32,000 nt of DNA from the NCBI RefSeq assembly GCF_000009705.1, contig NC_003272.1, positions 2,340,001 through 2,372,000 on the forward strand, in the 5' to 3' direction. This document shows positions 3 through 26,203 of the stretch, piece after piece; the first letter of the stretch is position 1, and the number at the start of each line of letters is the position of its first letter. The stretch is from Nostoc sp. PCC 7120 = FACHB-418. GTDB lineage: Bacteria > Cyanobacteriota > Cyanobacteriia > Cyanobacteriales > Nostocaceae. The notes beneath the pieces were generated by a model. That model saw only the letters and a program-made list of their open reading frames with translations. It was not told the origin of the DNA and did no database searches. The translations under genes and the position numbers were made by a program.

Positions 3-206
3 GTAAAGTTTGAAACTGGTGAAGCCAAAAGAGGCAATTTTACAACTTACGCTATCCGTTTTTTAGATGAGAAACAAGAGTCGGCTTTAAGCTTATTTTT
101 GCAATGGGGTAAGCCTGGAGAATATGAACCAGGACAAGTAGAAGCTTGGCACGCTTTAAAAGAAAAGTACGGCGAGGTTTGGGAACCTTTGCCAGTACAA
201 CTTTAG
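3..206 (+). CDS. 3' end of an unidentified gene entering from the left window edge (last 67 aa: ...FLQWGKPGEYEPGQVEAWHALKEKYGEVWEPLPVQL)
   Basis: My own translation of frame 3 is open from position 3 to TAG at 204-206. It has no internal stop and a non-repetitive composition. It is absent from the ORF track because there is no start codon in the window. Its stop overlaps the stop of the convergent TIR gene. No family recognised. Confidence 0.35.
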   Translation, partial: VKFETGEAKRGNFTTYAIRFLDEKQESALSLFLQWGKPGEYEPGQVEAWHALKEKYGEVWEPLPVQL

Positions 207-1294
207 TTGGATATAACAATATTATGGAATCTAGCGTCTTCTATGTTTTTATTTGGCCTTCCATAGGCGGCTGCAATTTCCAAAACTTGAATTTGGTTTA
301 CTTGTGCAGGCACTTTAGTAAAATTAATAATGAGTTTATTCTTAACTTTTGGGATTAAAGTCGTCTTCACATATTTTTCTACATTTCCATCAATTTCAAC
401 TGATTCAGCAAAGTAGGTAATACCATCTAAGTCTAGTATTCTGCTTCTCAGACCAGCAAAATTACCATACATAATCAGTCTTTGATCATCATTAAGAGTG
501 TTGATTAATTGCAACTCGCATTTGATATTCTGATTTTTTCTTGCACACTTCTGTAAAGTAAATTCTAACCCATCTCTTTCAATAGTTGTAAAATTTTCTA
601 TTGGTGATGCGGTGTTTAACTCAGGCTGTTTATTTGATATGGGATTGGAAGAGGATTTTAATAAAGAATCATCAGATTTTAGAGGAGATTCAGGATTTTT
701 TAATACAGAACTTGATGAATTTATATCAGGTAAATTTTGACTACTTTTACTAAATGAGTTTTCGGAACATTGTATTTTTAAAAAACATCTCACTTCTGGT
801 GTTGCAACAGCAATTATTAGCCCAGTAATAGTTAATAACAGGGTAACTATAGCATTAAATTTATTAAATGCTATCTTTTTACGGCGATGTTTTAAAACCT
901 GGTCTTGAATGAGCCGCCAAAGTTTAACAATTTGCTCATTCTCCCTATCTCCATCCCAGCCTATAAGATTAGCAGATTGAATATCTAAAAATTCTCCAGG
1001 GATTTTTACTGGTTCTATCAAAACAGAAATCAATACCTTGCCATTTTTCTTGGCTTCCGCCGCTAAATTTGTCAACAAAGCTGATTTGACAGATGTATTA
1101 GACCATAAAACAATAACGAACTTATTCTTTTCTAAAGCCTTTGTTGTTTCACTTATGATTTGGCTGCCTATAGATATATTTTGTGCTTCCCAAATATCAA
1201 TACTGTAGTAATTTAAAGCATCTTTCAAAAGATTTGCTGTAGCTTGATTTGATTCAGAGTATAATAAACAAACTTCACTCTTGCGTGTGTTCAT
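203..1294 (-). CDS. Membrane-anchored TIR-domain protein: N-terminal TIR_2-like domain, one TM helix, Ser-rich linker, C-terminal beta-rich domain of unknown function
   Basis: 363-aa ORF with an ATG start. The N-terminal ~130 aa follow the bacterial TIR pattern (VCLLYSESNQ..A..L...L....I.IW.......G......T..AL...KFVIVLWS..SV.S). A hydrophobic helix (FNAIVTLLLTITGLIIAVA) is followed by a low-complexity S/N/P linker and a ~130-aa C-terminal domain. The gene is AT-rich and I saw no HIP1 site in it. Confidence 0.7.
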   Translation of the reverse strand: MNTRKSEVCLLYSESNQATANLLKDALNYYSIDIWEAQNISIGSQIISETTKALEKNKFVIVLWSNTSVKSALLTNLAAEAKKNGKVLISVLIEPVKIPGEFLDIQSANLIGWDGDRENEQIVKLWRLIQDQVLKHRRKKIAFNKFNAIVTLLLTITGLIIAVATPEVRCFLKIQCSENSFSKSSQNLPDINSSSSVLKNPESPLKSDDSLLKSSSNPISNKQPELNTASPIENFTTIERDGLEFTLQKCARKNQNIKCELQLINTLNDDQRLIMYGNFAGLRSRILDLDGITYFAESVEIDGNVEKYVKTTLIPKVKNKLIINFTKVPAQVNQIQVLEIAAAYGRPNKNIEDARFHNIVISN

Positions 1295-11274: not shown

Positions 11275-11717
11275 ATATGACAACAGCGATTATGCCAATT
11301 GAGGTTTTGTTGGTAGAAGATAACCCAGGAGATGTAGAACTCACCCGTATTGCTTTAGAAGATAGCAAAATTTCCGTTCATCTGAGTGTGGTTGAGGATG
11401 GCGTGGAAGCAATGGCATTTCTGCGAAAACAAGATAAATACGCCAATGTACCTCATCCAGATATAGTGCTGCTGGATTTCAATCTGCCTAGAAAAGATGG
11501 GCGGGAAGTATTGGCAGAGATTAAAACTGATAGTTATCTCAAACGCATCCCAGTAGTGGTGCTGACGACTTCCCAGGCCGAGGAAGACATTCTCAAAGCT
11601 TATAACCTAGCAGCCAATTGTTACATAACTAAGCCTGTTGACTTTGACCAGTTCGTTAGAATTGTACAGTCCATAGAAAACTTTTGGTTTGCGATCGTCA
11701 AGCTGCCACCGGAGTGA
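11271..11717 (+). CDS. Single-domain CheY-like response regulator (REC only)
   Basis: 148 aa. [10 protein letters not shown], phospho-acceptor context IVLLDFNLP, and VVVLTTS...KP. The start is either a GTG overlapping the kinase stop (GTGA at 11271-11274) or the ATG at 11277. Confidence 0.9.
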
Positions 11718-11721
11718 AGCA

Positions 11722-14001
11722 ATGGCAGATGAAATTATCAAAGTCTTATTGGTAGAAGATAATCCTGGTGACGCTTTTTTAATTCAAGAGTTAATCAAAG
11801 AGGTAAATACAGCCAATTTAGAGTTATATCCAGTAGAGCGATTATCGGAAGCACTGAAAATTCTTGCTAGTGATACTTCTGATGGTTCGGTTCCACGCTT
11901 TGATGTCATGTTATTAGACTTGTCTTTACCCGACAGTCAGGGTATAGATACCTTTGTCAGAGCTAACCGTGAGACCAACGTTCTTCCCATCATCGTGCTA
12001 ACGGGAATAGATGATGAGAATTTAGCACTCAAAGCCATGCAGAAGGGAGCGCAAGATTATTTAGTTAAAGGACAAGTCACAGGAGACTTATTAGTACGTT
12101 CCATTCGTTATGCCATAGAACGTCAACGAGTAGAAGAAGCTCTGCGTCACAGCGAGGAACGGTTTCGGGTGGCGCTGAAAAACTCTCCTATTTTCGTTTT
12201 TAATCAAGACAGAGACTTACGTTATACCTGGATTTATAACCCAATTGCTGGGTGGACAGTTGAAGAAATGTTGGGTAAACAAGACTCGGAAATTATGTCT
12301 GAGCAGGATGCCCAATGTCTCACTGCCATCAAATATCATGTCCTCACTACAGGTATAGGGACTCGTCAGGTGGTGTCTATCGGTACTCCTCTAGGGACAA
12401 AATACTATGATTTAACTGTCGAGCCATTGCGGAATGAGTCACAAGACATTGTTGGCATTACTTGTGCTTGTATTGACATTAGTGAACGTAAACTAGCAGA
12501 AGCTAAAATTCGTGAACAAGCAGCCTTATTAGACATCACCACAGATGGTATATGTGTGCGCGATTTAGAAAATAAAATTTTGTTTTGGAACAAAGGTGCA
12601 GAAAATCTCTACGGTTGGCAAGCCCATGAGGTGATAGGTAAAAATGCTAGTGATCTTTTATTTCGTGAACCTTCTCTAGAAGTGGAAACTGCTTTATTAA
12701 ACGTTATCTCTCAAGGTAATTGGCAAGGAGAATTAAACAAAGTTACCAAAACTGGTAAGGAAATTGTTGTGGCTAGTCGTTGGAGTTTAGTCTATGACGA
12801 GCAAGGAAAACCAAAATCCATTCTCTCTGTAGATACAGATATTACCCAGAAAAAACATTTAGAAGCGCAATTATTTCGGACTCAACGCCTAGAAAGTATC
12901 GGAACTCTAGCTAGTGGCATTGCTCACGACCTCAACAATATCTTGACACCAATTTTAGCAGGAGCGCAATTACTACCACTCAAATTTCCTGACGCAGATG
13001 AACGTACTCAGCATTTACTAGAGATTTTAGAAATCAATGCTAAACGTGGTGCTGATTTAGTGAAGCAAGTGCTGTCCTTCGCCAGAGGTGTGGAAGGAAA
13101 GCGCATCACTTTACAACTCAAACATTTAATTGTGGAAGTTGTGAAAATTTTGAAGGAAACATTTCCCAAATCCATCGAAGTTTACACAGATATACCAAAT
13201 GACTTGTGGATGGTTTCTGGGGATAGTACCCAACTTCATCAAGTGCTGATGAATCTTTGCGTCAATGCCCGCGATGCTATGCCTGATGGTGGTACGTTGA
13301 CAATCTCTGCGGAAAATCTATTGATTGATGAAAACTACGCCCGGATGAACTTGGAAGCTAAACAAGGCCCATACATCATGATTACGGTGTCGGATACAGG
13401 AGTGGGCATTTCTCCAGAAAACTTAGATAGGATATTTGAGCCATTTTTTACCACCAAAGCTGTAGGACAAGGTACTGGTTTAGGTCTTTCCACGGTTTTA
13501 GGGATTGTCAAAAGTCACGGTGGTTTCGTCAATGTCTATAGTGAAGAAGGGCGGGGTACTACCTTTAGAGTTTACTTACCATCTGTGGGTGGTACGGAAG
13601 CACCCCATATAGATCATCTATTACCGCCGGCTGGTCATGGAGAATTAATCTTGATTGTTGATGATGAAGTCTCAATCCAAGATATTACCAAAACATCTTT
13701 AGAAGGTCATCAATATGAGACTTTAGTTGCTAGTGATGGGGTGGAGGCGATCGCTCTTTATGCCAAAAATGCCGATAAAATTAGTGCTGTATTAATGGAT
13801 ATCATGCTACCAGTACTCGATGGCTTAACCACTATTCGCACTTTGAAGAAAATTAACCCCCAAGTCAAAATTATAGCTACCAGTGGACTCATATCGAAAA
13901 CTAAGTTAACCGAAATAGTCAATACTGGTGCTAACTCATTCTTAGCCAAGCCCTACACAGTCAATGAGTTGTTGTTGGCTCTGCACGAAGTGATGACGTG
14001 A
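11722..14001 (+). CDS. Hybrid sensor histidine kinase (REC - PAS - PAS - HisKA - HATPase_c - REC)
   Basis: The start is moved to ATG 11722 ([17 protein letters not shown]). The 11-aa track extension overlaps the upstream gene. H-box GIAHDLNNILT, N-box LMNLCVNARDAM, G1 VSDTGVGI, G2 GTGLGLSTV. The C-terminal REC has ILIVDDE and VLMDIMLP. Confidence 0.9.
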   Translation: MADEIIKVLLVEDNPGDAFLIQELIKEVNTANLELYPVERLSEALKILASDTSDGSVPRFDVMLLDLSLPDSQGIDTFVRANRETNVLPIIVLTGIDDENLALKAMQKGAQDYLVKGQVTGDLLVRSIRYAIERQRVEEALRHSEERFRVALKNSPIFVFNQDRDLRYTWIYNPIAGWTVEEMLGKQDSEIMSEQDAQCLTAIKYHVLTTGIGTRQVVSIGTPLGTKYYDLTVEPLRNESQDIVGITCACIDISERKLAEAKIREQAALLDITTDGICVRDLENKILFWNKGAENLYGWQAHEVIGKNASDLLFREPSLEVETALLNVISQGNWQGELNKVTKTGKEIVVASRWSLVYDEQGKPKSILSVDTDITQKKHLEAQLFRTQRLESIGTLASGIAHDLNNILTPILAGAQLLPLKFPDADERTQHLLEILEINAKRGADLVKQVLSFARGVEGKRITLQLKHLIVEVVKILKETFPKSIEVYTDIPNDLWMVSGDSTQLHQVLMNLCVNARDAMPDGGTLTISAENLLIDENYARMNLEAKQGPYIMITVSDTGVGISPENLDRIFEPFFTTKAVGQGTGLGLSTVLGIVKSHGGFVNVYSEEGRGTTFRVYLPSVGGTEAPHIDHLLPPAGHGELILIVDDEVSIQDITKTSLEGHQYETLVASDGVEAIALYAKNADKISAVLMDIMLPVLDGLTTIRTLKKINPQVKIIATSGLISKTKLTEIVNTGANSFLAKPYTVNELLLALHEVMT

Positions 14002-14010
14002 AATATTAAA

Positions 14011-15279
14011 TCAAATTTCTATGCCTAAAACACATAAATGATCTTTTATAAGTTGTTTACCCAAATGCAAGGGATATGGTGAGATAATATTACCCATAGA
14101 CCATGCTGGTGAAATTCGTAGATAATGCGGTACTCGACAAAGTATTTTGAGACTTTCTGCTGTTTTTTGGAAATTTGGATGGACGAAAAATGGAACCATT
14201 TCTAAGATTTGTTGATGCTTGAATGCAATATTTACACCGTATTCGTCATTTTGAGAATCAAGCATATAGAGTTCCCTTGTTGTTAGTGTATCTTGTGCTT
14301 TTTGTGTTGTTGGTAATTTACCAATTGAGAAATAATGAAGTAACTCAGGTATAGATATATCGTAAAAACCACTTAAATTGATGAGATCCCTTGCTGAAGA
14401 GTTTTCATCCCAGGTTTCTCTATTAGTGATATATTGGGCTGTCTCATCGCCAGAGCGTAAGCGGATGATTCCAAGTAAGTTTTTGAGTGCTTTATGGTCA
14501 CGGGGATACACACAACCATGACCCGGAACGTGTTGGAAATCTAACACATCACGCTTTGCAAAAAGATATTCATTTTTCAATTGAAACCAAGCTTGACCTT
14601 CATTATCCTCACCACGCTCGTTGCGCCATCCCTCAGCCTCGATTAAAACCAGTGTGGGGCGATCGCTGATTTGCGTGAATACATCAGCCGCAAATTTAGC
14701 TAGTTCTATCCCTTTTAATTGGACTGTTTTGAAAAGATGGCGATCGCGTTTTACCTGTGAGAAAATTTTCCCAAGTTCAATTCCTGCTCGTGGGTAAGGA
14801 ATCCAATCCTTTGTATTAGGAAATAATACATCAACCTCACCCGTTGCCCGTAGACGGACAGCAAGAACATAGTGGATATTTTCCCTAGCTTGATTGACTT
14901 TACGACGGCACAAGGCAATCACATCTAGGTTTTGTGCAATTTCCTTCTCTATCCCCGCCTGTTCATAAACTTCTGAAGGTAAACCATATAGCGTGCCAGT
15001 CTGACGTAGTGTCAAATCCAATACAGCGTTTAATATACGCCCTTCAGTTTTCTTACTATAAGAGGGTGTAACATTTTTATTATTATCTTCTTGGTTAGTA
15101 GATTTTGGTGAAACCGTTTGCACCATTTGGGAACTAAGTTCTTCTAACACACAAGCTTCCCTAACGGCTCCATAGATATTTTGCTGTGGATATAATCCTT
15201 TCTTTTTGGTTTGTCCAACTTCCACAATTGCCAAGCAGTAAGGTTGGATGGAACAGTCAATCAAAGGTTTAAGTTTGAC
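14011..15279 (-). pseudogene. pPIWI-RE protein, C-terminal segment (predicted RNase H/PIWI-like domain), cut off from the rest by an in-frame TAA
   Basis: The track ORF 14011-15264 starts at a TTG. The same frame is open up to the TAA at 15280-15282, which ends the upstream ORF (15282 minus 15264 = 18 nt). Features I associate with the pPIWI_RE RNase H domain: IIRLRSGDETAQY, QQILEMVPFFV, and the C-terminal PYPLHLGKQL. Confidence 0.6.
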
Positions 15280-16173
15280 TTACAAAGACTTGCGCCATTC
15301 TTCGCGTTTATGCTGATACTCTTTACTAATTTGTTTATCAAACTCTTGACCATCTTTAGGAGCTAATCCATTTGTATCTAGTGGCTTTAAAAGTTTATCA
15401 TTATCAATCCACACAGATAATAGTTTAATATAATCAGGAAAGTCTTCGTCTTCATTTAATAAAAAGACATCACGTAAACTTTGATAGACAATATCATGGG
15501 TATCTCGTTCGCGCCATAACAGAAAAATATACATAAATTTTCCCGTTAATACTCGTTGGATAGCATTAGCAATGATTATTTTTCTTTCCTGATGATGTTT
15601 AGCTACAAGTTCTTGAATTTTGTCTTGACTCAGCTTTTCTTTTTGCTGTTTTGTTATGGTTTTAGGCTGGGAGATAAATTTGTAATCACGCATTGCCAAG
15701 GGCGTATTTTGTCCAGATGGAGTAGGAATGTCAGTTTGTATTGGCTCATCTGGAATAAGTACATTATCTAATAATTGCAATACTTGATTTACTATATCTC
15801 CGCGCTCCTGTAAACTAAATCCAGGTTTAATGCTGTGTTTTCTTTTAGAGCTTTCATGTTTATACTTGTATCCTTCAGCGTGAACTATATAATATTCATC
15901 TTTTTTCCAATCAGGTCTATTTTGTAAATTGTTGTATTTTATTGGATTAAGTAGAATATCACTACTAGATTGAAGCGATCGCGCCTTAAAAGCAGATAGC
16001 AAATTTGGTAATTGAAATTCCCACTGCTTACTCTCCTCTCTCCCATTATTGTCAATAGTGAGTCTGATTAAAGTAGAATCTATATCATACCCAGATAAGC
16101 GCTCTTCATTCATACCCATCAACACAGAGATATCACGTCCATAATTAGTTTCTATTAATGGTTCATGAGCATA
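15280..16173 (-). pseudogene. pPIWI-RE protein, middle segment (between the IS630 insertion and the in-frame TAA)
   Basis: The track ORF 15280-16125 starts at a GTG. My translation stays open upstream to the IS junction (YAHEPLIETNYGRDISVLMGMNEERL...). It ends at TAA 15280-15282. Confidence 0.6.
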
Positions 16174-17365
16174 TAGGAATCCTATTTGATTTTTGAATAA
16201 GTTCCGTACATCTGTAGAGTGTCAAAATCAAAGGTAGTGTGTCTAATAAACCACTCAAATATCCACTTTAAATGTGAAAATGAAGGAATTAAAGCACAAA
16301 AACGTCTAACCCATGTTTTGGCTTGTAACCAAATATCCTCTATCGGATTTTGTACTGGGCAATTAGGGGCAAAACGGACACAGTGTATTTTCCATTGCTC
16401 GGTTGGTAAGCTTTGATTAACAGAGTCCAAGAAACCTCTAATTTCCTTGGAACGGTGGTAGCTAGCCCCATCCCAAAAAATTAGTAATCGCTGGTCGGGA
16501 GAGTTAGCTAGTAAGTATTCTAGGTAGTTGATAGTATTTTTTGAGTTTCCAGCATCATAAGCTTTGAGAACTAATTCTCCAAGGAGATAGTCAACTGCCC
16601 CATAGTATGTCTGCTTATCTCGCTCGTTGACAACTGGGACTGCGATTTCTTGGTCACTTTTTCCCCATACATAACCACTTAAATCTCCCCACATTAAATG
16701 ACACTCATCAATTAACAATACTCTTAACTTTCCTGTTTCGATTTCTTCTCGGTTATTTGCCAGCAATGTTTCAATCTCTTTTTTTTTTCTGCAACAGCAT
16801 TCTCATCGGCTTTCGGATTTACCTTTGTGGTTTTCTTCCAACTGATTCCTGCTTCGGAGAACAAGTCGTAGTAGCTTTGCTTTGACTCATAAACTACGTC
16901 ATACTCAAAAGCTAGTTGATACTCTAGTTCCCCAAGCTCCCAACAATCTTTTGTTTGTAGCCAGCTCAACACCTCTTGGAGTTGTTTAGCATTCAGATAG
17001 CTCTTTCTCCCTTTGTAGTTTAGTCGCAGTCCGTCAATTCCAGTTTCTTCATAGGCTTGCTTCCAGCCTGTGATTGACCCTCGCGATACGTCTAAAATTT
17101 TTTGGATTTCATCATACAAGTAACCTTGATAAACTAGCTTGACTGCCAATGCTTTCCTTACTTCACGCGCATCTGGACACATATCTATAAAATCTTGTAA
17201 TTCAGCAATCGCATTCAGTGCAGTTTCCTCTTTTAAATATTGCTGCGATACTTCCCCCGCAAGTGTAGTAGCTTGTAAATGCTGACTTTTCATTGTTTAC
17301 TATTAGACTTTTATCCCTCTCCGTATTATCTCTTGGTCTTGTTCACAAATCAAATAGGATTCCTA
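16174..17365 (-). mobile_element. IS630-family insertion sequence (~1.19 kb) inserted in the pPIWI-RE gene
   Basis: Terminal inverted repeats: TAGGAATCCTATTTGATTTTTGAATAAG (from 16174) pairs with the reverse complement of CTTGTTCACAAATCAAATAGGATTCCTA (ending 17365), with 2 mismatches over ~28 bp. Flanking TA at 16172-16173 and 17366-17367 is the target duplication typical of IS630/Tc1-mariner. Boundaries are ambiguous by 2 nt because of the TATA context. Confidence 0.85.
16182..17293 (-). CDS. IS630-family transposase (HTH N-terminal part 16724-17293, DDE part 16182-16766), two frames joined at an A10 run
   Basis: The N-terminal ORF has winged-helix/HTH character. The C-terminal ORF carries DDE-type residues (LLIDECH, IFWDGASYH, NPIEDIW). 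The frames overlap around AAAAAAAAAA (T-run on the plus strand, 16779-16788), and the downstream frame is -1 relative to the upstream one. Confidence 0.85.
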
Positions 17366-18174
17366 TATCTCTGGCAACTTAAATGTAAGAAAATCCAAGG
17401 TTTGATCTGACTAATTTCATTAAACCTTCCTGCTTGAGTTTGTAAGCGAAAATCTAAGCGATAGACAAAATATCCTGTCCTTTCCTTGCCGTTCTCATCT
17501 AGGTAAAAGGCAACAAATGGTTGACTAACTAGGAATAGTCCCGTTCTTCCTGAACCATCGCCTTGTGCTTTTCTCCAGCGAATTTCTTGCTCTCTTTGTC
17601 CAGAGCGAATAACACAGGCTTTTCCATGCAATATAGTTGCAAGTAGGCTGGGTATAGCTTGAAATCCAAGTCCTTTTTCGGCGTTAATATTTTGGATCAG
17701 GGTTTCTGTTGGTATTGATTGCCAAAACCAATTAGAGGGAAATATGTCTATTTTTTCTAGGAAGCGATCGCAAACACTAGCGACCTGATCTGTTTTTCCC
17801 TTACCAGAAAATTGCTTTGTCCATTCCTGCGCCCAAATACTCACTAACTCATGTATTTGTTCTGGTGTGGGAACTCGAAGGGGATTTTCATTTGTGCCTA
17901 CAGCTAAAGCTCGATAATCACCTCTATCAAAATACTCAAAACCATGAGTTAAAGTTGATGCACAGGCAACTAAACCATTATTCAACTGTCTGTAAGGTAC
18001 ATGAACCTTTTTTTTGCGATTTGGGGATAAAACCTCTTCCATGCTGTTACGAAATTCCGCAATAATTTCGGCAAATGGAAACTGAAGTATCGCAATTTGC
18101 AAATTTTTTAAAGCATCTTCCCGAAGCGTCATTCGCGCCAGTAAAAGGGAATTTGAATCAGATTTTTTAGGCAT
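17366..18174 (-). pseudogene. pPIWI-RE protein, N-terminal segment (pPIWI_RE N-terminal module), truncated by IS630
   Basis: The track ORF 17350-18189 starts at a GTG. ATG 18174 is preceded by AGGAG 7 nt upstream, so I prefer it. The last 5 track residues (YRNPI) and the stop are read from IS sequence. The native sequence ends ...FLHLSCQR at the TA target site. Confidence 0.6.
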
Positions 18175-18197
18175 TGTCAACTCCTGCACGCAAAAAG

Positions 18198-21100
18198 CTA
18201 AAAATATAGGTCATTAATTGTTTCCATCGCCTCAGCAAGAGGCTGATAAAGTGCATTGCCCACGCTGTTTTCCTCGCTGGCATAGTCGCAAATTCGTAAT
18301 ATCATGGCGACGAGTAGGCTTGTTTGTTCAGTATCATTTTCATTCAGTTCAGGATTAGCTATTCTGGCAGCACTCTTAGGGGCCCAAGCAGCATCAACGA
18401 AATAAGCACGAAATGGCACACCGCCACGCAACAGACGACCAACGGCTTGAATGACTAACCCAGCAGTAGTTGCAGCCAAATCAAATCTTGGATAAGCAAG
18501 TAATTCCTTATCATCACGTAGAGTTTTATAGTATGAGCGCTGTTCAACCGATCGCCAATAACGCGCTGCTAGTTGCCGCACTTTTTCTGCACGTTGAACG
18601 ACTCCATCTCCCTGTAACCAGGCTGTAAAGGCATCTTTATCCACCCAGTCTAAAGCGCGTCGATTCATTTCTTGGGCGATCGCTTGTGTATCATGGGGAT
18701 GGGGATAGGGACGAGTTAGAAAGTAAACGCTACCAAATGCGGCTTTACCATTGCCATTCAAAATATTGAAGCCACGCCCCATCGCACTCATCGGCGCAAC
18801 TAAAATTCTGCCGTTGGTTTGCCCGAAAGTTTCAATATCTGCACGATTGAGCGCACCTTTGTCAGTTGGTTGTAGAAGTCGGTCTATTTCATCAAAGTCA
18901 TTCTCTGTGTATGTATCTGTATTATCAGGGACTAAATGATAAACAGAGTCCTGCATACTTGACCAGCAATTACCAATTTCCTTGGCTACCCAACGGGCTT
19001 GATCATAGGAGTTGACTAATAATAAAATACGATCGCGATCGCGCCAGTGGTAATTTGCATCATCACCAAGATGTCTCAATTCCTTAAGTTCTTGACCTAG
19101 ATGACCTGTACCGTTACTACCAATAAGCGATCGCGCTATTTCTTGAAATAAGCCCATTTTTTTTCGTTCAGCGCTACCGGAAATACGCAGGGGTTGGTTC
19201 TTTTGGTTGAATTGAGGCAGAAACTTGAAGTAACTTTGAGCGATCGCTTTTATTGCCTCTTGTTCCGGCATTAAAATACCCTGCGGATTACCAACGTGAA
19301 AGCTAGTAGAATGTGGTAAATATGATGTTCCAGAAAGTGCCAGCACATTAGGCCCGCGTTGTCCATTAAAGTCTGTTAGTAAATGATGAAAGTTAAGAAT
19401 ATAGCAACGTCCAATATTTGTATAAGCAAACAATGTTAGGGCATTATTACTACGATTCTTGGATTTTTTATCGCTCTCATTGTCTTTAGAGTAATATGTG
19501 CCGAATTGTCGTCCTGTAAGGGGTAGCGGCAAAATATTCAACATCGCCGTCGGCATACGCTGATGGGGTGAATCATCGGTAATTGATTGGGGCCGATTTT
19601 GCCACTCATAGAAGACAATGCGCGTGTGTCTATCCAAAAGAGCGATCGTCAGCGCGAATTGTAGGCGATAAGCCAAAGTTTCTATAGTATCTACCTCATT
19701 CTCATTGCTTGATTGTGGCGAACTGTGCTGACGATTCTCTAATTCTGTTCGCAACCGTTCTAAACGCCTTTGTGTATTCGGAAAAAATTCCAGAATCCAA
19801 GCTCTGCAAGCTATGTATATTTTGTCATCTAATGCGCTTTCACCAGTGCTGTTAATTTCCTGCATAAGCGCTGCCAGACGATACACTGGATTTTGACTTG
19901 GGTTTTCAGGAGAATCCATCCGTAAAGGATCTTCCTCGTTGAGTAGTGCATCAAAATAACGCACAATTGGCTTTATCAGTCGAGCATTGGCTTGCGAATG
20001 GGCTTCTGGGGTTTCTGGAGATTCAAATTCTTCTAATCCCGCCAGACGACGGGCAAATTTAAACAGCAGAGTGTTGGGTGTAAAGTAACCGCGTTTAATC
20101 CAATCTCGTAGAATCTGATGTCCAAAATGTTTATCAAGTAGCGTTAGTGTGGCTGTAATTGCTTTTTGGGCATCACGTTCTGCACCAGTCCATCTCTGAG
20201 TTAACGGGGGCATCACACGGTTAGTTGTGGAAAATTGTTCTGTTTTCACGCCAATATCATCAAAAACCCCGTTTTTACCACCATCAGTAAGCACCACCTC
20301 CTCAGCGTAGGTGTCATCAAACCACTTAATAACCGTCTCTACTTCATCAAAAACAACAAAATCTGATTGTTCGTAGACGAGTTCACCTATTTTCATAGGA
20401 CGCAACTCTAGATGGCGTGGTAATCCTGCCATTGCCATTGCGCCTGGAGTTGTAATCCAAACACGGGCATTTGGCATATCATGATAAACCTGTTGGGATG
20501 GACATTTGGCAAAGAATGGACACAAATAAAATGAACCTCTGCTTTTACTTCGTCTGGCGCGTAGGCGTAGCCCGTCGTAGACATCGCTTGCAGGCATTTT
20601 TTGCAGAGAGTAACAAGGTTCTGTTCCTGGTTTGAGGGGTTTGTTATTTAAAAATTCCTGAAAGGAACGCTTATTAATCTGACCCTGTAGAGGACAAGCT
20701 GTGCCTAACCAACGTTCACCCCAGTGAGGCTGTCCACGTTGCTGATGTTCAAGATAATCCTTCGACGTAGAGAAACTCCGCAGGTGTGCATCCCGTTTAC
20801 TGCGCCCCAAGATTGGTACTGCTATCGGCTCATCATTCTCTGGGTCGTCACAGAACCACCAATTGATTTGGTTAGCTAATTTAATCGCTGATTGCACATC
20901 ACTAACGACTAAGGTGATGCGGCGATCGCCATGATGTCGCACAATATTTACAGTCAGCAATTGCGAAAAGGTGGTCTTTCCAGAGGCAACCATACCAGCA
21001 ATGTTTGTGAAGCCATCTAACTCTAGAATCCGCTCCTCTTGCTGAAGCAGTGTGGCATTTTCCTGTACTCTGTGGAAATTAATTTTGCGGAAGCGATTTA

Positions 21101-21827
21101 CCCAATGTCCTTTGGCGGTTTCATCCCACCCATATTGTCGGGTTAACGCTTCCTCTCGTTCATCAATCCAGGCTGCATCTTGCTCTAAATCTGAAATGCG
21201 GAGGGAAAAAGAACTGCGAGAACGAGATGTGGCAAACCAGGGTAAGTGCTGTATCTGTGCATTACGTACCTGTTGCTGGGTAAATTTGATTGGGACTATA
21301 ACTGTCTGTTCTCCTGTCTTCGCCTCGAATTGATAAGCAACGTCAAGCTCTACTTGCTGAACTTTACGAAGCCGGAAATTCAAATTGGCTATTAAACACC
21401 GTTCATATACATCTTGATTTGCTGGATGTCTGAGGTTTTTAGCAGCATGAATAATATAGATATCCCAATTTTGCGGTGTGAAATCTCCGTAGTTACGCCA
21501 ATCTAAAGGAATCTTCAGATAAGAACGCAAGGCAGCTAACCAAGCGAAGCGGGCAGAAAATGGAGCAATTTGACGAGCGTTGGCGATCGCTTTTCTTGCC
21601 ATCTCATCTAAGTTTTGTAAACGCGGATGTCTTAAGGGCATCCCACTCAAAACCGCCCAAGGTGCAGTAACTGGCTCATCATCGAGTCCCAAACGCTCCA
21701 TCAGCACAAAGCAAAGCTCTACCTGAAGTAGCAATTCAGCCTGAATACGCTCCAAGCCTTCATCCTTCAACTGTTCGAGGCGGTCTATAAACTCTCTTGG
21801 TAGCTCAAATAAGGTCTTCTGGCTCAT
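18198..21827 (-). CDS. Large SF2 (DinG/XPD-like) helicase of the pPIWI-RE three-gene island, with a ~270-aa N-terminal extension
   Basis: 1209 aa. Walker A AGMVASGKTT (20970-20999). Walker B VVFDEVE (20337-20357). Four Cys between them (aa 378, 405, 436, 442). C-terminal motif VI-like QAVGRLLRGG. The start overlaps the upstream stop (ATGA at 21824-21827). Confidence 0.75.
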   Translation of the reverse strand: MSQKTLFELPREFIDRLEQLKDEGLERIQAELLLQVELCFVLMERLGLDDEPVTAPWAVLSGMPLRHPRLQNLDEMARKAIANARQIAPFSARFAWLAALRSYLKIPLDWRNYGDFTPQNWDIYIIHAAKNLRHPANQDVYERCLIANLNFRLRKVQQVELDVAYQFEAKTGEQTVIVPIKFTQQQVRNAQIQHLPWFATSRSRSSFSLRISDLEQDAAWIDEREEALTRQYGWDETAKGHWVNRFRKINFHRVQENATLLQQEERILELDGFTNIAGMVASGKTTFSQLLTVNIVRHHGDRRITLVVSDVQSAIKLANQINWWFCDDPENDEPIAVPILGRSKRDAHLRSFSTSKDYLEHQQRGQPHWGERWLGTACPLQGQINKRSFQEFLNNKPLKPGTEPCYSLQKMPASDVYDGLRLRARRSKSRGSFYLCPFFAKCPSQQVYHDMPNARVWITTPGAMAMAGLPRHLELRPMKIGELVYEQSDFVVFDEVETVIKWFDDTYAEEVVLTDGGKNGVFDDIGVKTEQFSTTNRVMPPLTQRWTGAERDAQKAITATLTLLDKHFGHQILRDWIKRGYFTPNTLLFKFARRLAGLEEFESPETPEAHSQANARLIKPIVRYFDALLNEEDPLRMDSPENPSQNPVYRLAALMQEINSTGESALDDKIYIACRAWILEFFPNTQRRLERLRTELENRQHSSPQSSNENEVDTIETLAYRLQFALTIALLDRHTRIVFYEWQNRPQSITDDSPHQRMPTAMLNILPLPLTGRQFGTYYSKDNESDKKSKNRSNNALTLFAYTNIGRCYILNFHHLLTDFNGQRGPNVLALSGTSYLPHSTSFHVGNPQGILMPEQEAIKAIAQSYFKFLPQFNQKNQPLRISGSAERKKMGLFQEIARSLIGSNGTGHLGQELKELRHLGDDANYHWRDRDRILLLVNSYDQARWVAKEIGNCWSSMQDSVYHLVPDNTDTYTENDFDEIDRLLQPTDKGALNRADIETFGQTNGRILVAPMSAMGRGFNILNGNGKAAFGSVYFLTRPYPHPHDTQAIAQEMNRRALDWVDKDAFTAWLQGDGVVQRAEKVRQLAARYWRSVEQRSYYKTLRDDKELLAYPRFDLAATTAGLVIQAVGRLLRGGVPFRAYFVDAAWAPKSAARIANPELNENDTEQTSLLVAMILRICDYASEENSVGNALYQPLAEAMETINDLYF

Positions 21828-22966
21828 TGGCTATTCCCCTCCAGCAAGCTTTCAATTTTATTAATCACTCGTTTCTCAAAAACAGCATCACTCAAAAGAT
21901 GAATACTGCTTGGCAGTTTTGCCGCCTGCTCCCGAAGAATTTCTAGATAATTCTGTGTTTGTTGCAAACGTTCGATAGGAATGACATAAAAACTTTCGTG
22001 ATAACGTAAATCTCCCTCGCTGAATAGAGGTGTTAACTTCGGTGCTAACTTGTAGGGACTTTGATAATCCTTAATATCTACAGCCCAGGTTGTTTGGTCA
22101 CAGAAGCACAGTTGTAAGTCATAGCGATCAATGCCAGGGTAAAGATGAATGGCGCAAAGCTGTTGTGGGAATTTACTTTGTAGTTCTGCCAAAATCTCAA
22201 ATAACCGTATTTCCGGTATTCCTGGTAAACAGATACGCAAGTGAATCCCAAACTTCAAGCGACACAACCCATGTTGCCATGTAATCTTTTTCACATAAGG
22301 CAGACTTTGCCGATGGTCGTTGCAAACACTAGGTTTAATACCACGTAGCTTGCCATACTTTTTAAACAAAGGGCCGCAGCGATCGCAATTCCAGGAAGGC
22401 TCTTCTATTTCACACTCATCATAGAGTTCTCCAACTTCTTGGATGTGAATATATTTTGTTTTCAAAAATACTTTGCGGATATGTGCCTTAGTTGTGTATC
22501 GATTCTCAATCAGAAATCGACGCAGTAAAACATATTCCCTTTGCACACTTTCAGGATTACTATCGTTGTTATATAACTCTTGTAAACGTGCCAAAATTCT
22601 TTGAAATTGGAGATTTTCTATAGCAATCTGCTGAGTTGTAGCAGTTGCGGACTCTGATAATTTTGTCCGCTCAAGCAGTTCTTCATAAAAGTATCGATTT
22701 GCTTCTTCACTAAGTCCTCCTTCGTAAAGTAAGCCAAAATCTGAGTCAAATTCTTTTGGTATGAAGCGCCTTGGATACCAAGTTTTCACAGGTTTTTCCA
22801 GTAGAACTAAAAGACCATTCAGAGTACGCGGATATGGTACAGCAGTTAACTCTAGTGCTAGTTTATTCAGACCATGACGTAGTAGTTCTGGATATGGATA
22901 CTTGCCATCTCGGCGGACAAACTCTGCTAAACCAATAACAAGACTGTTAAATTCGCTAATTTCCAT
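21824..22966 (-). CDS. PD-(D/E)xK restriction-endonuclease-fold protein with Zn-ribbon, first gene of the pPIWI-RE island
   Basis: 380 aa. CDRC...CNDH putative Zn-ribbon (aa 194-218). Nuclease core PGID(280)...x16...VD(297)IK(299), at 22070-22129, preceded by an acidic helix (PEIRLFE). Translationally coupled to the helicase gene. Confidence 0.7.
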   Translation of the reverse strand: MEISEFNSLVIGLAEFVRRDGKYPYPELLRHGLNKLALELTAVPYPRTLNGLLVLLEKPVKTWYPRRFIPKEFDSDFGLLYEGGLSEEANRYFYEELLERTKLSESATATTQQIAIENLQFQRILARLQELYNNDSNPESVQREYVLLRRFLIENRYTTKAHIRKVFLKTKYIHIQEVGELYDECEIEEPSWNCDRCGPLFKKYGKLRGIKPSVCNDHRQSLPYVKKITWQHGLCRLKFGIHLRICLPGIPEIRLFEILAELQSKFPQQLCAIHLYPGIDRYDLQLCFCDQTTWAVDIKDYQSPYKLAPKLTPLFSEGDLRYHESFYVIPIERLQQTQNYLEILREQAAKLPSSIHLLSDAVFEKRVINKIESLLEGNSQ

Positions 22967-23030
22967 AAGCGATCATCCTTCTTTGAGAGGATTTACTCAG
23001 CACCACGCTTTTTTCATTCATGATACATTT

Positions 23031-23069
23031 GTTGCACATACCATACAGGATTATTTATGGTGTGTCAAC
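23031..23069. promoter_or_regulatory. Candidate operator palindrome in the divergent promoter region between the nuclease operon and the XRE gene
   Basis: GTTGCACATACCATA (23031-23045), an 10-nt spacer, then TATGGTGTGTCAAC (23056-23069). The core ACCATA/TATGGT is perfect, and the extended arms match 9 of 11. GGAG sits 5 nt upstream of the XRE ATG at 23110. Confidence 0.4.
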
Positions 23070-23109
23070 TAAGAAACGATTGATTTTTACGTGACGCAAG
23101 GATAGGAGA

Positions 23110-23475
23110 ATGGGAAGTTATCTAGATATAGAACGCTTGGCGAGCCTAGTTCGCAAAAAGCGAGGTAGTAGAGGGTTGCGAGAAACTTCGGTAGAAATTG
23201 GGAATGTAAGTCCATCTACTCTATCAAGGGTAGAGAGCGGTAGAATGCCGGACATGGAAACATTTTTAGCGCTTTGTAACTGGCTACAAGTACCACCTGC
23301 GGAGTTATTTAGAACTACGGAGGAGGATCAACCAGATACGCCTGAAGCGATCGCAATTCAATTACGAGCCGACAAAAAACTTGATCCAGCGATCGCCAAT
23401 GCTTTAGCGTCCTTAGTCAAAGCAGCCTATCGAGACCTTTCGCAACAAGATGACGAATTGAAGCAAGACCCATAA
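23110..23475 (+). CDS. XRE-family helix-turn-helix transcriptional regulator
   Basis: 121 aa. Typical HTH_3 pattern (LVRKKRGSRGLRETSVEIGNVSPSTLSRVESGRMPDMETFLALCNWLQVPPAELF) followed by an acidic tail. Confidence 0.85.
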   Translation: MGSYLDIERLASLVRKKRGSRGLRETSVEIGNVSPSTLSRVESGRMPDMETFLALCNWLQVPPAELFRTTEEDQPDTPEAIAIQLRADKKLDPAIANALASLVKAAYRDLSQQDDELKQDP

Positions 23476-23477
23476 CT

Positions 23478-24023
23478 ATGTCATTAATTGAAAAACTGTC
23501 GACAGACTTTAGACAACGCTGTGAGGTAATCACTACTGAACAACGCAGCTTAATTCAATTGAAAGCTTTTGAGCGATTGCCAGCAAACACCCTAGCCGCT
23601 AAATTAGGGGCAACAGTCTTGACACCTGATCAGTTTCCCAATTTACCAGCAGAGCAAGTACAAAGATTACTTGCCAGTGATGAGTGGTCAGGAGCAATTG
23701 TATGCGATCGCCCCCTAATAATTGTTTATAATCCCCTTCACGCAGATACAAGATACGAATCAAATGTGATGCACGAAATAGCTCATGTATTGTTAAATCA
23801 TAAGCGGGTTGGTTTCGATCCATTAACAGGGCTACCAAAACGTCAACAAATTAACGAAGATGAAGCCACTTATTTAGGAGGATGCCTGCAAATTCCCAAA
23901 CGTGGTTTACTATGGGCAACACAAAGAAAAATGCTCTTATCTGAGATTGCGGTATATTTTGGTGCTAGTGAAGCTATGGTACAGTTTCGCAGTAATGTAA
24001 CTAACGTACCTGTAAGATACTAA
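23478..24023 (+). CDS. ImmA/IrrE-family (COG2856) zinc metallopeptidase
   Basis: 181 aa. HEIAHVLLNH (HExxH) in the position typical of ImmA/IrrE. The start is 2 nt after the XRE stop, so the two genes form an operon. Confidence 0.8.
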   Translation: MSLIEKLSTDFRQRCEVITTEQRSLIQLKAFERLPANTLAAKLGATVLTPDQFPNLPAEQVQRLLASDEWSGAIVCDRPLIIVYNPLHADTRYESNVMHEIAHVLLNHKRVGFDPLTGLPKRQQINEDEATYLGGCLQIPKRGLLWATQRKMLLSEIAVYFGASEAMVQFRSNVTNVPVRY

Positions 24024-24225
24024 GGTTCTATCAAATACAAACTATTATCTGCTTGCCATTGTGATTGAGAGATGGCGTAGTAAGCTAGCTTTTGATACTT
24101 CATGGCTATTTTCTCAATTACTCGTCTTGATGCTATGTTTTCTGGAAGAGCGATCGCTACTATTTTCGAGAGTCACCTAGAGTAAAGCATCTGAGTCTTA
24201 ATCTTACGGTTTCTATCTCAGGCAT
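24020..24225 (-). pseudogene. Remnant of a RimJ/RimL-type GNAT N-acetyltransferase with a large internal deletion
   Basis: My translation gives ATG 24225 -> MPEIETVRLRLRCFTLGDSRK*, a classic GNAT N-terminus. A second frame (24172-24020) reads LSKIVAIALPENIASRRVIEKIAMKYQKLAYYAISQSQW..., a classic GNAT C-terminus. About 110 central residues are missing. Confidence 0.55.
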
Positions 24226-24322
24226 TGCATCACAACGAAAGCGCACTTTACCTTCAGACAGGTGTTTTTCTAATCAAACAATTTACACACAGTCTATTAA
24301 AAATTAATATAATGCTCCTACT

Positions 24323-26203
24323 ATGAGCATCTACCAACTTTCCCAAAAATCTTACAAACGAAACCGTTGGCGTAACAATGACTGGCGGCTGTTTTCCCGT
24401 TTGGTTCCTTACGCCCGGCGTAATACTAAACTCCTAATTCTGGCAATGGTACTGCTATTACCACTTGCTTTGGCTAATGCCGTACAACCCTTGTTAATTG
24501 GACAAGCTGTATCCTTAATTCGTAAGGAATCTAGCGCATACGAGTTTTTGAGAAATCGCCCCTTGTCCCAAGGGCTACATATAATTGAGGGAGTCTTACT
24601 CTTTACAATTGTTGTTCGTTTAGCGTTGACGGGTTACCAAGGCTATTTGTTACAGAAGTTAGGGCAAAAAATTACAGCCGCTATTCGCCAAGACTTATTT
24701 CATCATGTAACTTCTCTGGCAGTCCGTTTCTTCGACCGTACACCCGTTGGTAAACTAATTACCCGACTCACCAGTGATGTAGAAGTATTGGGAGACGTAT
24801 TTTCCACTGGTGCTATTGGCATCGTCTCTGACGTAGTTTTGATGGTGGTCATTACTGGTTTAATGTTTTCTATCCAGTGGCAACTTGCTTCTTTGCTCCT
24901 GGTGATGTTGTTACCAGTTACTTGGTTAATTATTTACTTCCAACAAGAGTACCGCAAAGCTAATTACAAAGCGAGGGAAGAACTCTCTTTATTGAATTCC
25001 CAGCTACAAGAGAATGTTTTGGGGATTAACGTAGTCCAGTTATTCCGCCGGGAAAAGTTTAATGCTGAGTTATTTCGGACTACTAACCAACGCTATACCA
25101 AACAGGTAGATCAAACTATCTTTTTTGATTCGGCTGTTTCCGCAACTCTGGAATGGATTGGCTTAATTGCGATCGCTGGTGTATTGTGGGTGGGTGGATG
25201 GTTACTTTCAGACAATCAAGTTGATTTTGGGACTTTATCGACCTTTATTTTATACGCCCAACGCTTATTCGACCCTTTACGAGATTTTGCGGAAAAATTC
25301 ACCGTGATTCAATCTGGATTTACGGCCATTGAACGGGTTAGCGACATTTTAGATGAACCGATAGAAATAAGCGATCGCTCCAACTCTCGTTTTTCCGTTT
25401 TTGATGCTAAATTTGGTTACATTGATGAAATTGTGGCTGATTTGGAATCTCAAAATATCAGCGACACTCCAAACATGGGAGAAATACGTTTTGAACACGT
25501 TTGGTTTGCCTATAAAGACGATGATTACGTCATCAAAGACTTAGACTTTATTATTCGTCCTGGCGAAAAAGTTGCATTAGTAGGGCCTACTGGCGCAGGT
25601 AAAAGTTCTATCATCCGTCTTTTATGTCGTCTCTACGAACCCACCCAAGGACGTATCTTAGTCGATGGAATTGATATCCGCGAGTTACCTCAAGCAGAAT
25701 TACGCCGTTATATGGCGGTAATTTTACAAGAGGGTTTTTTATTTGCTGGTAATGTCAAAAGCAACATTACTTTAGGTGATTACTATACTTTTGAGGAAAT
25801 TCAAGCAGCCGCACAACAAACAAATATTGCCGAATTTATCGAAGAACTACCCTTAGGTTACGATACTAAATTGCGAGAACGGGGTACAAATCTTTCTAGT
25901 GGACAAAAGCAACTGTTAGCTTTTGCTCGTGCAGCTATTCGCAATCCTCAAATTTTGGTTCTAGATGAAGCCACTGCAAGTCTCGATGTTGGTACAGAAG
26001 CCTTAGTGCAGGAAGCATTAAACGAATTATTAATTGGGCGAACTGCCATCATTATTGCCCACCGCCTGTCTACAATTCGCAACGTAGATAGAATTTTTGT
26101 GTTAAAACGTGGTGAATTAGTGGAACAAGGTAGCCATGAGGAACTGTTAAATTCAGGAGGGCTTTATTCTACTCTGCATAATCTCCAAATGCTGGGAACC
26201 TAG
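24323..26203 (+). CDS. ABC exporter, fused permease + ATPase (MsbA/MdlB-like)
   Basis: 626 aa. N-terminal 6-TM-type domain. Walker A GPTGAGKSS, signature LSSGQKQ, Walker B ILVLDEATASLD, H-loop IIIAHRL. Confidence 0.92.
   Translation: MSIYQLSQKSYKRNRWRNNDWRLFSRLVPYARRNTKLLILAMVLLLPLALANAVQPLLIGQAVSLIRKESSAYEFLRNRPLSQGLHIIEGVLLFTIVVRLALTGYQGYLLQKLGQKITAAIRQDLFHHVTSLAVRFFDRTPVGKLITRLTSDVEVLGDVFSTGAIGIVSDVVLMVVITGLMFSIQWQLASLLLVMLLPVTWLIIYFQQEYRKANYKAREELSLLNSQLQENVLGINVVQLFRREKFNAELFRTTNQRYTKQVDQTIFFDSAVSATLEWIGLIAIAGVLWVGGWLLSDNQVDFGTLSTFILYAQRLFDPLRDFAEKFTVIQSGFTAIERVSDILDEPIEISDRSNSRFSVFDAKFGYIDEIVADLESQNISDTPNMGEIRFEHVWFAYKDDDYVIKDLDFIIRPGEKVALVGPTGAGKSSIIRLLCRLYEPTQGRILVDGIDIRELPQAELRRYMAVILQEGFLFAGNVKSNITLGDYYTFEEIQAAAQQTNIAEFIEELPLGYDTKLRERGTNLSSGQKQLLAFARAAIRNPQILVLDEATASLDVGTEALVQEALNELLIGRTAIIIAHRLSTIRNVDRIFVLKRGELVEQGSHEELLNSGGLYSTLHNLQMLGT

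Follow-up and report, generated by a model that had tools for sequence, protein, structure and literature searches.

A decayed pPIWI-RE cassette with a divergent XRE/ImmA-IrrE regulator pair in Nostoc sp. PCC 7120

A gene set that carries the marks of an Argonaute-like system, and whose presumed sensor gene is broken into pieces, raises two questions: what did the locus originally encode, and can it still work? Such a set lies on the minus strand, at 14011..22966, of the 32,000-nucleotide (nt) stretch of Nostoc sp. PCC 7120 analyzed here (contig NC_003272.1, positions 2,340,001 to 2,372,000; hereafter the window). It consists of three co-directional genes in the order REase, DinG helicase, and a broken PIWI-RE frame, and a preliminary description made from the sequence had proposed it as a candidate pPIWI-RE three-gene island. 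The explanation that best fits the evidence overall, and that is held here with considerable confidence, is a decayed pPIWI-RE cassette, i.e., a five-gene unit with a double knockout of its PIWI-RE gene, together with a mechanism that the intact form of the system would follow. The features of the minus-strand genes are as follows.

21824..22966, minus strand: gene 1, REase, 380 amino acids (aa), intact
18198..21827, minus strand: gene 2, DinG-type SF2 helicase with N-terminal Z domain, 1209 aa, intact
14011..18189, minus strand: gene 3, PIWI-RE, span of the open pieces, ATG at 18174, broken
17366..18174, minus strand: gene 3 fragment 1, first half of domain X (pPIWI_RE_X, E-value 2e-10), ending at the insertion site
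16174..17365, minus strand: insertion sequence (IS) IS895 (IS630-like), 1192 bp, with 28-nt terminal inverted repeats and a TA duplication
15283..16171, minus strand: gene 3 fragment 2, rest of domain X plus linker, with PADLOC PprPIWI matches and alignment to intact orthologs
15280..15282, minus strand: in-frame TAA nonsense codon (CAA-to-TAA), codon 567 of the repaired gene
14011..15279, minus strand: gene 3 fragment 3, MID + PIWI module (RNaseH_pPIWI_RE, E-value 8e-21), with R840 and E927 present

The tight packing that had been described agrees with the sequence. Genes 1 and 2 share an ATGA overlap, 23 nt that include an AGGAG separate the helicase stop from the PIWI-RE ATG, and the end of the PIWI-RE gene lies 9 nt from the stop of a convergent histidine-kinase gene. 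The locus thus shows the strict order, shared direction, and overlapping or close termini of the pPIWI-RE three-gene island defined by Burroughs, Iyer and Aravind in 2013 and listed in PADLOC as “argonaute type III” (PprRE-PprDinG-PprPIWI), and its gene families and spacing agree with that definition as well. The likeness extends to the X, MID, and PIWI modules, the R/E signature, the protein that joins a Zn ribbon to a REase domain, and the Cys-rich DinG helicase with its Z domain. The locus differs from the 2013 island in two respects: the PIWI-RE gene is a pseudogene here, and in this clade a divergent XRE + ImmA/IrrE pair is part of the cassette.

Assignment of the three proteins to the family is supported by profile matches in Pfam and PADLOC. 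Gene 1 matches pPIWI_RE_REase of Pfam (E-value 9e-24) and PprRE of PADLOC (8e-18); of the two domains anticipated for it in the preliminary description, the REase domain was thereby borne out, while the pPIWI_RE_Y match was only weak (0.003). Its architecture comprises an N-terminal helical region, a Zn ribbon (CxxC...CxxH), and a PD-(D/E)xK domain (GID...VDIK), so that the helical Y domain with its conserved Arg, the Zn ribbon, and the REase fold typical of the family are all represented, the first by a weak match. All 60 of 60 family-invariant residues are kept in gene 1, including C185/C194/C197/C215/H218, R149, P277, D280, D297, and K299. Gene 2 matches pPIWI_RE_Z (4e-41, Pfam) and PprDinG (1e-121, PADLOC), and keeps 272 of 272 invariant residues, among them G283-K284-T286, Cys 378/405/436/442, and D494-E495. 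The four Cys lie between the Walker A (GMVASGKT) and Walker B (FDEVE) motifs, and are predicted to hold an Fe-S cluster. The motifs that had been pointed out in both proteins are not only present but invariant in orthologs, as judged over 35–44 of them.

The three open pieces of gene 3 (17350..18189, 15280..16125, and 14011..15264) share one frame. Once joined they encode 989 aa from the ATG, in keeping with the earlier estimate of ~990 aa, which had left unstated that the separators are IS895 and the TAA codon. The repaired protein matches pPIWI_RE_X (E-value 2e-18) and RNaseH_pPIWI_RE (4e-20). Its MID_pPIWI_RE match falls below the cutoff (0.004), and PF18157 is present in most close homologs; the architecture of X + MID + PIWI (RNase H-like) is that expected of the family. 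Over 100% of its length, the repaired PIWI-RE shares 75% identity with intact 990-aa Nostoc proteins that have the same domains. Chance resemblance is excluded for the three proteins because the profile E-values range from 1e-18 to 1e-122. Sequence searches of the PDB returned nothing relevant for any of the three, and no solved structure is detectable by sequence.

The fold was assessed on a model, namely an AlphaFold2 prediction of an intact ortholog (P0005) that is 74% identical to the window protein (pLDDT 88, pTM 0.88). In a Foldseek search against the PDB, the best 28 matches to this model were full-length Argonaute/Piwi structures (best E-value 5e-10, probability 1.00), including TtAgo, CpAgo, RsAgo, and hAgo2, and those below the top 28 among the matches listed were short Argonautes. 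As modeled, then, the ortholog is Argonaute-like in overall architecture, as the preliminary description had expected of the repaired protein. The model also has the extra helix that follows the first three-stranded beta-meander in this family, with strands at 687–696, 703–711, and 717–720 followed by a helix at 730–747; W727, which precedes the helix, is invariant. The “RE” signature is likewise found. On comparison with PsPIWI-RE of Pseudomonas stutzeri (sequence taken from the supplement of PMC10991935), R639 corresponds to R840, and E718 pairs with E927 once a gap is shifted by one column. The two residues are kept in 98–99 of 99 homologs and are present in the window. PsPIWI-RE resembles the protein at issue in belonging to the same family, in this signature, and in the overlap with an upstream dinG gene. 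It differs in being 783 aa long and catalytically active (D525, D610), whereas the proteins of the cyanobacterial clade are ~990 aa long.

Can a locus of this descent still work in PCC 7120? The first lesion is the IS895 copy, which is flanked by TA target duplications at 16172–73 and 17366–67. Its 28-nt inverted repeats occur nowhere else in the window, and its transposase, encoded in two overlapping frames, has HTH_23/HTH_33 and DDE_3 domains. Inverted repeats, a TA duplication, and a helix-turn-helix (HTH) + DDE_3 transposase are those of the IS630 family, and the transposase bears the public name “IS630-like element IS895 family transposase” (370 aa). This copy is nothing unusual for Anabaena PCC 7120, being one of many identical IS895 copies in the genome. 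When IS895 and one TA are deleted in silico, the uninterrupted PIWI-RE frame is restored exactly, and fragment 2 becomes continuous with fragment 1. As a separate observation on the element itself, an A10 run (16779..16788) lies where the two transposase frames overlap. A -1 slip there would yield a continuous protein of ~370 aa, annotated as such in one assembly, which accords with programmed frameshifting rather than with decay.

The second lesion is the CAA-to-TAA change at codon 567. Gln is the commonest residue in the corresponding column but is poorly conserved, occurring in 39% of 99 homologs. The same gene fragments, IS, and TAA are found in CP183817.1, in AP018216.1 (Trichormus variabilis NIES-23), and in a UBA8866 metagenome-assembled genome (MAG). 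A metagenome scan with a pattern spanning the nonsense codon gave no match. Sequencing error and recoding were both considered as explanations of the TAA and ruled out, given the same TAA in four assemblies and a sister species with a different stop elsewhere. The triad is thus not fully intact at this locus: the PIWI-RE gene of PCC 7120 is a pseudogene, knocked out twice, by IS895 and by CAA->TAA, while those for the nuclease, the helicase, and the regulators remain intact. The locus is a pPIWI-RE member by descent, and the system cannot work as encoded.

It could be argued that the locus nevertheless functions in PCC 7120, either through a split, “short pAgo”-like protein formed by the C-terminal 417 aa (MID + PIWI) or through reversible excision of IS895. 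The fully intact REase and DinG genes, the presence of the whole RNaseH_pPIWI_RE domain within the C-terminal open reading frame (ORF), and the restoration of the frame on removal of the IS and one TA would suit such a view. The TAA at codon 567 would, however, survive excision of the IS, and both lesions are fixed in all four assemblies. Moreover, a split at these points is conserved in no homolog, in the sister species the break falls at another codon, and the sole start available to the C-terminal ORF is TTG, with no ribosome-binding site evident. Continued function is therefore regarded as extremely improbable, and the decayed cassette is retained as the reading.

The sister species in question, Anabaena azotica FACHB-119 (loci L001/L019), has an empty IS site and a Q at the position of the PCC 7120 stop. 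Its PIWI-RE gene (L001 9113..12100) carries no IS and is dead by a single, different in-frame stop at about position 240, at a codon for E in PCC 7120 (DENGKE vs DDNGK followed by the stop). The REase and DinG genes of A. azotica are intact. Since the lesions in PCC 7120 and A. azotica differ, PIWI-RE has been inactivated independently in two sister lineages. The event in PCC 7120 is recent, since the reading frame keeps 89 of 90 invariant residues and since omega, measured for PIWI-RE against the sister species, is 0.24; the latter value is similar to that of neighbor genes. With respect to the age of the locus as a whole, dS relative to A. azotica is 0.11–0.37 for the five island genes (14011..24023), as compared with 0.73 for the flanking kinase and 1.05 for the flanking ABC transporter (flanks compared: 11689..14001 and 24323..26203). 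This suggests that the island is younger than its surroundings, though at the same site in both species, and that it was later exchanged by recombination between lineages.

The next question is where the cassette ends. The term “three-gene island” holds for the triad and its order, but the island continues past the REase gene, where a divergent pair belongs to it (23110..24023):

22967..23109: divergent intergenic region, 143 nt, candidate promoter and operator
23110..23475, plus strand: XRE-family HTH repressor, 121 aa, Alr1976 (“NsrX”), Pfam HTH_3 E-value 5e-8
23478..24023, plus strand: ImmA/IrrE-family Zn metallopeptidase, 181 aa, Alr1977, Pfam Peptidase_M78 E-value 4e-16 over residues 69–172

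Protein records BAB73673, BAB73674, and BAB73676 of Nostoc sp. PCC 7120 are exact matches to window proteins, and the last of these is the peptidase, named “ImmA/IrrE family metallo-endopeptidase” by NCBI. The gene numbers alr1976 (XRE) and alr1977 (peptidase) were obtained by accession arithmetic and agree with a 2025 paper (PMC12584617), in which an XRE-like protein, Alr1976, is followed by an IrrE-domain protease, Alr1977, and in which Alr1976 is named “NsrX” as a nitrogen regulator.

Evidence that the pair is part of the cassette comes from a survey in which one genome per species was scanned for PIWI-RE relatives; 75 loci were obtained, and their ORFs were searched with iterated profiles. 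Of the 43 loci in which the REase gene is complete and no less than 1.5 kb of upstream sequence is available, 41 have the XRE + M78 pair adjacent to the triad and divergent from it (the automated count was 40; L010 was added, its pair having been overlooked because of overlapping stop-to-stop ORFs). Loci with the pair occur in Cyanobacteria, Bacteroidota, Chloroflexota, and Armatimonadota, and include those of Spirosoma, Hymenobacter, Anaerolineae, and Capsulimonadaceae. The pair is also found in the same position in A. azotica and, amid different flanking genes, in Nostoc sp. C110. The conserved unit is hence one of five genes, with XRE and peptidase transcribed one way, REase, DinG, and PIWI-RE transcribed the other, and a shared region that measures 143 nt in PCC 7120. 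The pair is not mentioned by Burroughs et al. (2013), who describe only occasional HTH fusions to the REase.

The arrangement recalls that of known repressor-protease switches. In CapH/CapP, ImmR/ImmA, and DdrO/IrrE, as here, the gene for an HTH repressor is followed by that for an M78 Zn-peptidase, and CapH/CapP-type pairs lie upstream of, and opposite to, the immune operons that they control (Lau et al. 2022); the HTH + M78 pair at this locus occupies that very position, upstream of the operon and on the opposite strand. The HExxH motif of the peptidase (H99-E100-H103) is kept in 53 orthologs. Unlike CapP, which has a C-terminal GAF domain with a groove that binds single-stranded DNA (ssDNA), the 181-aa peptidase yielded only Peptidase_M78 and no GAF domain in Pfam. 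Being short and without a GAF domain, it resembles ImmA more than CapP or IrrE; cleavage of the repressor is predicted by analogy with those switches. In the papers searched on CapH/CapP-type and PIWI-RE systems, PIWI-RE was not found named among the systems tied to such switches.

Alr1976 binds its own promoter with high affinity, independently of metal, and acts as a repressor, while it binds the promoters of nitrogen genes less tightly and in a metal-dependent manner (PMC12584617). The “own promoter” of the published high-affinity electrophoretic mobility shift assay is necessarily the 143-nt region that is shared with the REase operon. In this region, the TTGACACA and ATGTATCA blocks are invariant across 13 aligned Nostocaceae loci and are candidate operator blocks. 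A sigma-70-like site, TTGACA-17-TATGGT, runs on the minus strand from 23068 to 23040 and faces the REase operon, such sites being no more frequent than in shuffled sequences. A 10-nt inverted repeat (23036–23065) was also considered as the operator and dropped, since even the closest relatives do not conserve it.

An alternative would be that the XRE and peptidase genes form an operon of the host for nitrogen regulation (NsrX/Alr1977), to which the triad is merely adjacent. NsrX does bind the promoters of nitrogen and heterocyst genes, some of which are up in the mutant (PMC12584617). In that paper, no mention is made of all1975 or PIWI. However, the pair accompanies the triad in 41 of the 43 loci, always divergently, including loci of non-diazotrophic Bacteroidota and Chloroflexota, and the high-affinity site is the shared intergenic region rather than the nitrogen promoters, with their lower-affinity, metal-dependent binding. 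In addition, the patchy phyletic spread of NsrX reported in the same paper fits an island-borne gene. Mere adjacency is therefore considered very improbable, and the pair is treated here as part of the five-gene cassette. A further step may be ventured tentatively, at somewhat less than an even chance: that the pPIWI-RE systems of this clade are stress-inducible five-gene cassettes with their own XRE/ImmA-like switch, and that NsrX is first of all the repressor of the decayed operon, with nitrogen and heterocyst effects that are possibly secondary.

How would the intact PIWI-RE act? PsPIWI-RE requires D525 and D610 for catalysis (Huang et al. 2022, PMC10991935). Among 99 homologs of the window protein, the residue opposite D525 in the alignment is R, V, I, H, or L and never acidic; the neighboring Arg is kept in 96 of 99, and the D610-aligned column holds Glu in 94 of 99. 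The DEDX tetrad, with an acid at the first position in beta-1 and an Asp at the end of beta-4, thus seems not to be present, as read from the alignment. A profile alignment moves the register by two residues, still onto non-acidic positions (hhalign probability 21%). D686 was weighed as a displaced first catalytic Asp and ruled out, as it stands at the very start of beta-1, and the catalytic Asp of RNase H folds comes late in the strand. Absence of the canonical tetrad has been reported for most of the PIWI-RE family (Burroughs et al. 2013). Because no acidic residue occupies the first catalytic PIWI position, the PIWI-RE of this clade is probably a binder rather than a cutter, and because R/V/I/H/L stand at the D525 position and Glu at that of D610, cleavage by it appears doubtful.

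DdmDE of Vibrio cholerae, and the long-B and short prokaryotic Argonautes (pAgos) with associated effectors, use an inactive Argonaute-like sensor, and the target found by means of its guide is passed to a helicase-nuclease effector. By analogy, the intact cassette would resemble DdmDE and effector-linked pAgos in working logic. It differs in that the helicase (DinG-type, with an Fe-S motif) and the PD-(D/E)xK nuclease are not one protein but two, from different families, and in that the sensor is of the PIWI-RE branch; the homology shown with these systems is that of the Argonaute fold only.

A sequence of events can be proposed for the intact system along these lines. The XRE protein would hold the operon repressed until a stress signal, probably DNA damage or infection, leads the peptidase to inactivate the repressor. 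The MID pocket of PIWI-RE would then grip the 5′ end of a short guide, and PIWI-RE would find complementary invader nucleic acid or an RNA-DNA hybrid or R-loop, in line with the guide-based recognition of invader nucleic acid or R-loops proposed for PIWI-RE (Burroughs et al. 2013). Probably, for want of the first catalytic aspartate in this clade, it would only bind, and would recruit the Fe-S DinG helicase for unwinding or translocation and the PD-(D/E)xK REase for DNA cutting. With the sensor missing as encoded, guided targeting cannot occur in PCC 7120.

Several points weigh against this picture. The catalytic mapping comes from a weak alignment (the hhalign probability of 21% noted above) and secondary-structure register, not from structural superposition, and the carboxylate retained at the second position (the E in 94/99) may denote a non-canonical active site. 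Published support for the switch is limited to the binding of the repressor to its own promoter (PMC12584617), derepression of all1975-all1973 being a prediction, and with no GAF domain in the peptidase, the ssDNA sensing of CapP is not simply transferable. The intact REase and DinG genes, at an omega of ~0.2–0.26, could reflect some retained function or merely recent decay. No defense assay was found in the literature for any three-gene PIWI-RE system. The sole biochemistry is that of the catalytically active Pseudomonas protein, and the knockout in that organism pointed to replication and cell division rather than immunity (PMC10991935). The preliminary description had called the system uncharacterized experimentally; this is slightly out of date, given the in vitro study of PsPIWI-RE in that work.

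The Pseudomonas results also bear on the possibility that the triad is a chromosome-maintenance module, active in replication, decatenation, or repair and not in immunity, in which PIWI-RE would work with DinG to clear up replication problems, with the XRE/ImmA pair as the link to the DNA-damage response. Deletion of piwi-re in P. stutzeri leads to increased ciprofloxacin sensitivity and disturbed cell division (PMC10991935). DinG is itself a repair helicase, and ImmA/IrrE-type switches answer DNA damage. By contrast, distribution over phyla is patchy, the cassette lies between different neighbors in different genomes, and the lower dS of the island (0.11–0.37) than of its flanks (0.73–1.05) suggests exchange. 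Furthermore, 22 of 50 full-context loci are degraded and PCC 7120 lives without PIWI-RE, and a housekeeping function would not be expected to decay so freely. A maintenance role is accordingly judged unlikely, and the decayed cassette of a guided, effector-linked system remains the preferred explanation.

With respect to decay in the clade at large, all five genes are full length at 28 of the 50 loci with full context, and at least one is truncated or missing at the other 22, a figure possibly inflated by MAG assembly errors. The decayed state of the window locus is typical for Nostocales, not exceptional. Individual loci illustrate the range of changes. In four loci of Nostoc/Aulosira (L005, L008, L015, and L016), REase and the N-terminal two-thirds of DinG have given way, at ~5.2–9.9 kb, to a gene on the opposite strand that encodes a PLD-nuclease + SF2 helicase (its product is 922 aa long in L008). 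These loci have an intact PIWI-RE, with a stop-to-stop frame of 997 aa, or 989 aa when counted from the ATG, and a truncated XRE gene, as if cassettes had been swapped within the island. In a MAG of Cyanobacteria bacterium J06621_8 (L068, 6944..12796), a single 1951-aa frame matches both DinG and PIWI-RE, and could have arisen as a fusion by deletion or as an artefact of assembly. In Nostoc carneum NIES-2107 (L054, 9992..14338), PIWI-RE comes in two pieces of 813 aa and 189 aa that lie ~1.3 kb apart, probably because of a further insertion-sequence hit in the same gene.

The surroundings of the island in the window can be described briefly. The preliminary description had placed it between a convergent kinase and a decayed GNAT gene, and both are real:

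24024..24322: remnant of a GNAT acetyltransferase gene, with ~305 nt deleted relative to A. azotica (window 24164–24183 = L001 3129–2806)

An Rfam scan of 13000..25000 matched no RNA family; hence, this interval gives no sign of a guide-RNA gene or CRISPR-like array. About 13 kb from the island, a 363-aa protein encoded on the minus strand (203..1294) has an N-terminal TIR_2 domain (E-value 7e-11) and is possibly a separate defense or signaling gene.

What, then, does the locus add? The family itself is already known (defined in 2013 and present in Pfam and PADLOC), public records already label the PCC 7120 proteins accordingly (“REase associating with pPIWI RE”, “pPIWI_RE_Z domain-containing protein”), and the present copy does not function. 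The association with the regulator pair and the connection to NsrX are the only points that go beyond the existing record. For the organism, a model amenable to genetics, the analysis describes precisely a naturally occurring PIWI-RE null whose partner genes are intact. For work on the system, intact orthologs, e.g., the cassette of Nostoc sp. C110, are better starting points than the PCC 7120 copy. Since the triad in this clade nearly always occurs with a repressor-peptidase switch, the regulation of PIWI-RE becomes directly testable, and a delta-alr1976 strain exists. Alr1976/NsrX has so far been interpreted without its genomic context. If it is indeed first of all the repressor of a decayed pPIWI-RE operon, its effects on nitrogen and heterocyst genes might reflect either the domestication of an orphaned island regulator or the derepression of a nuclease and a helicase left without their PIWI-RE sensor.

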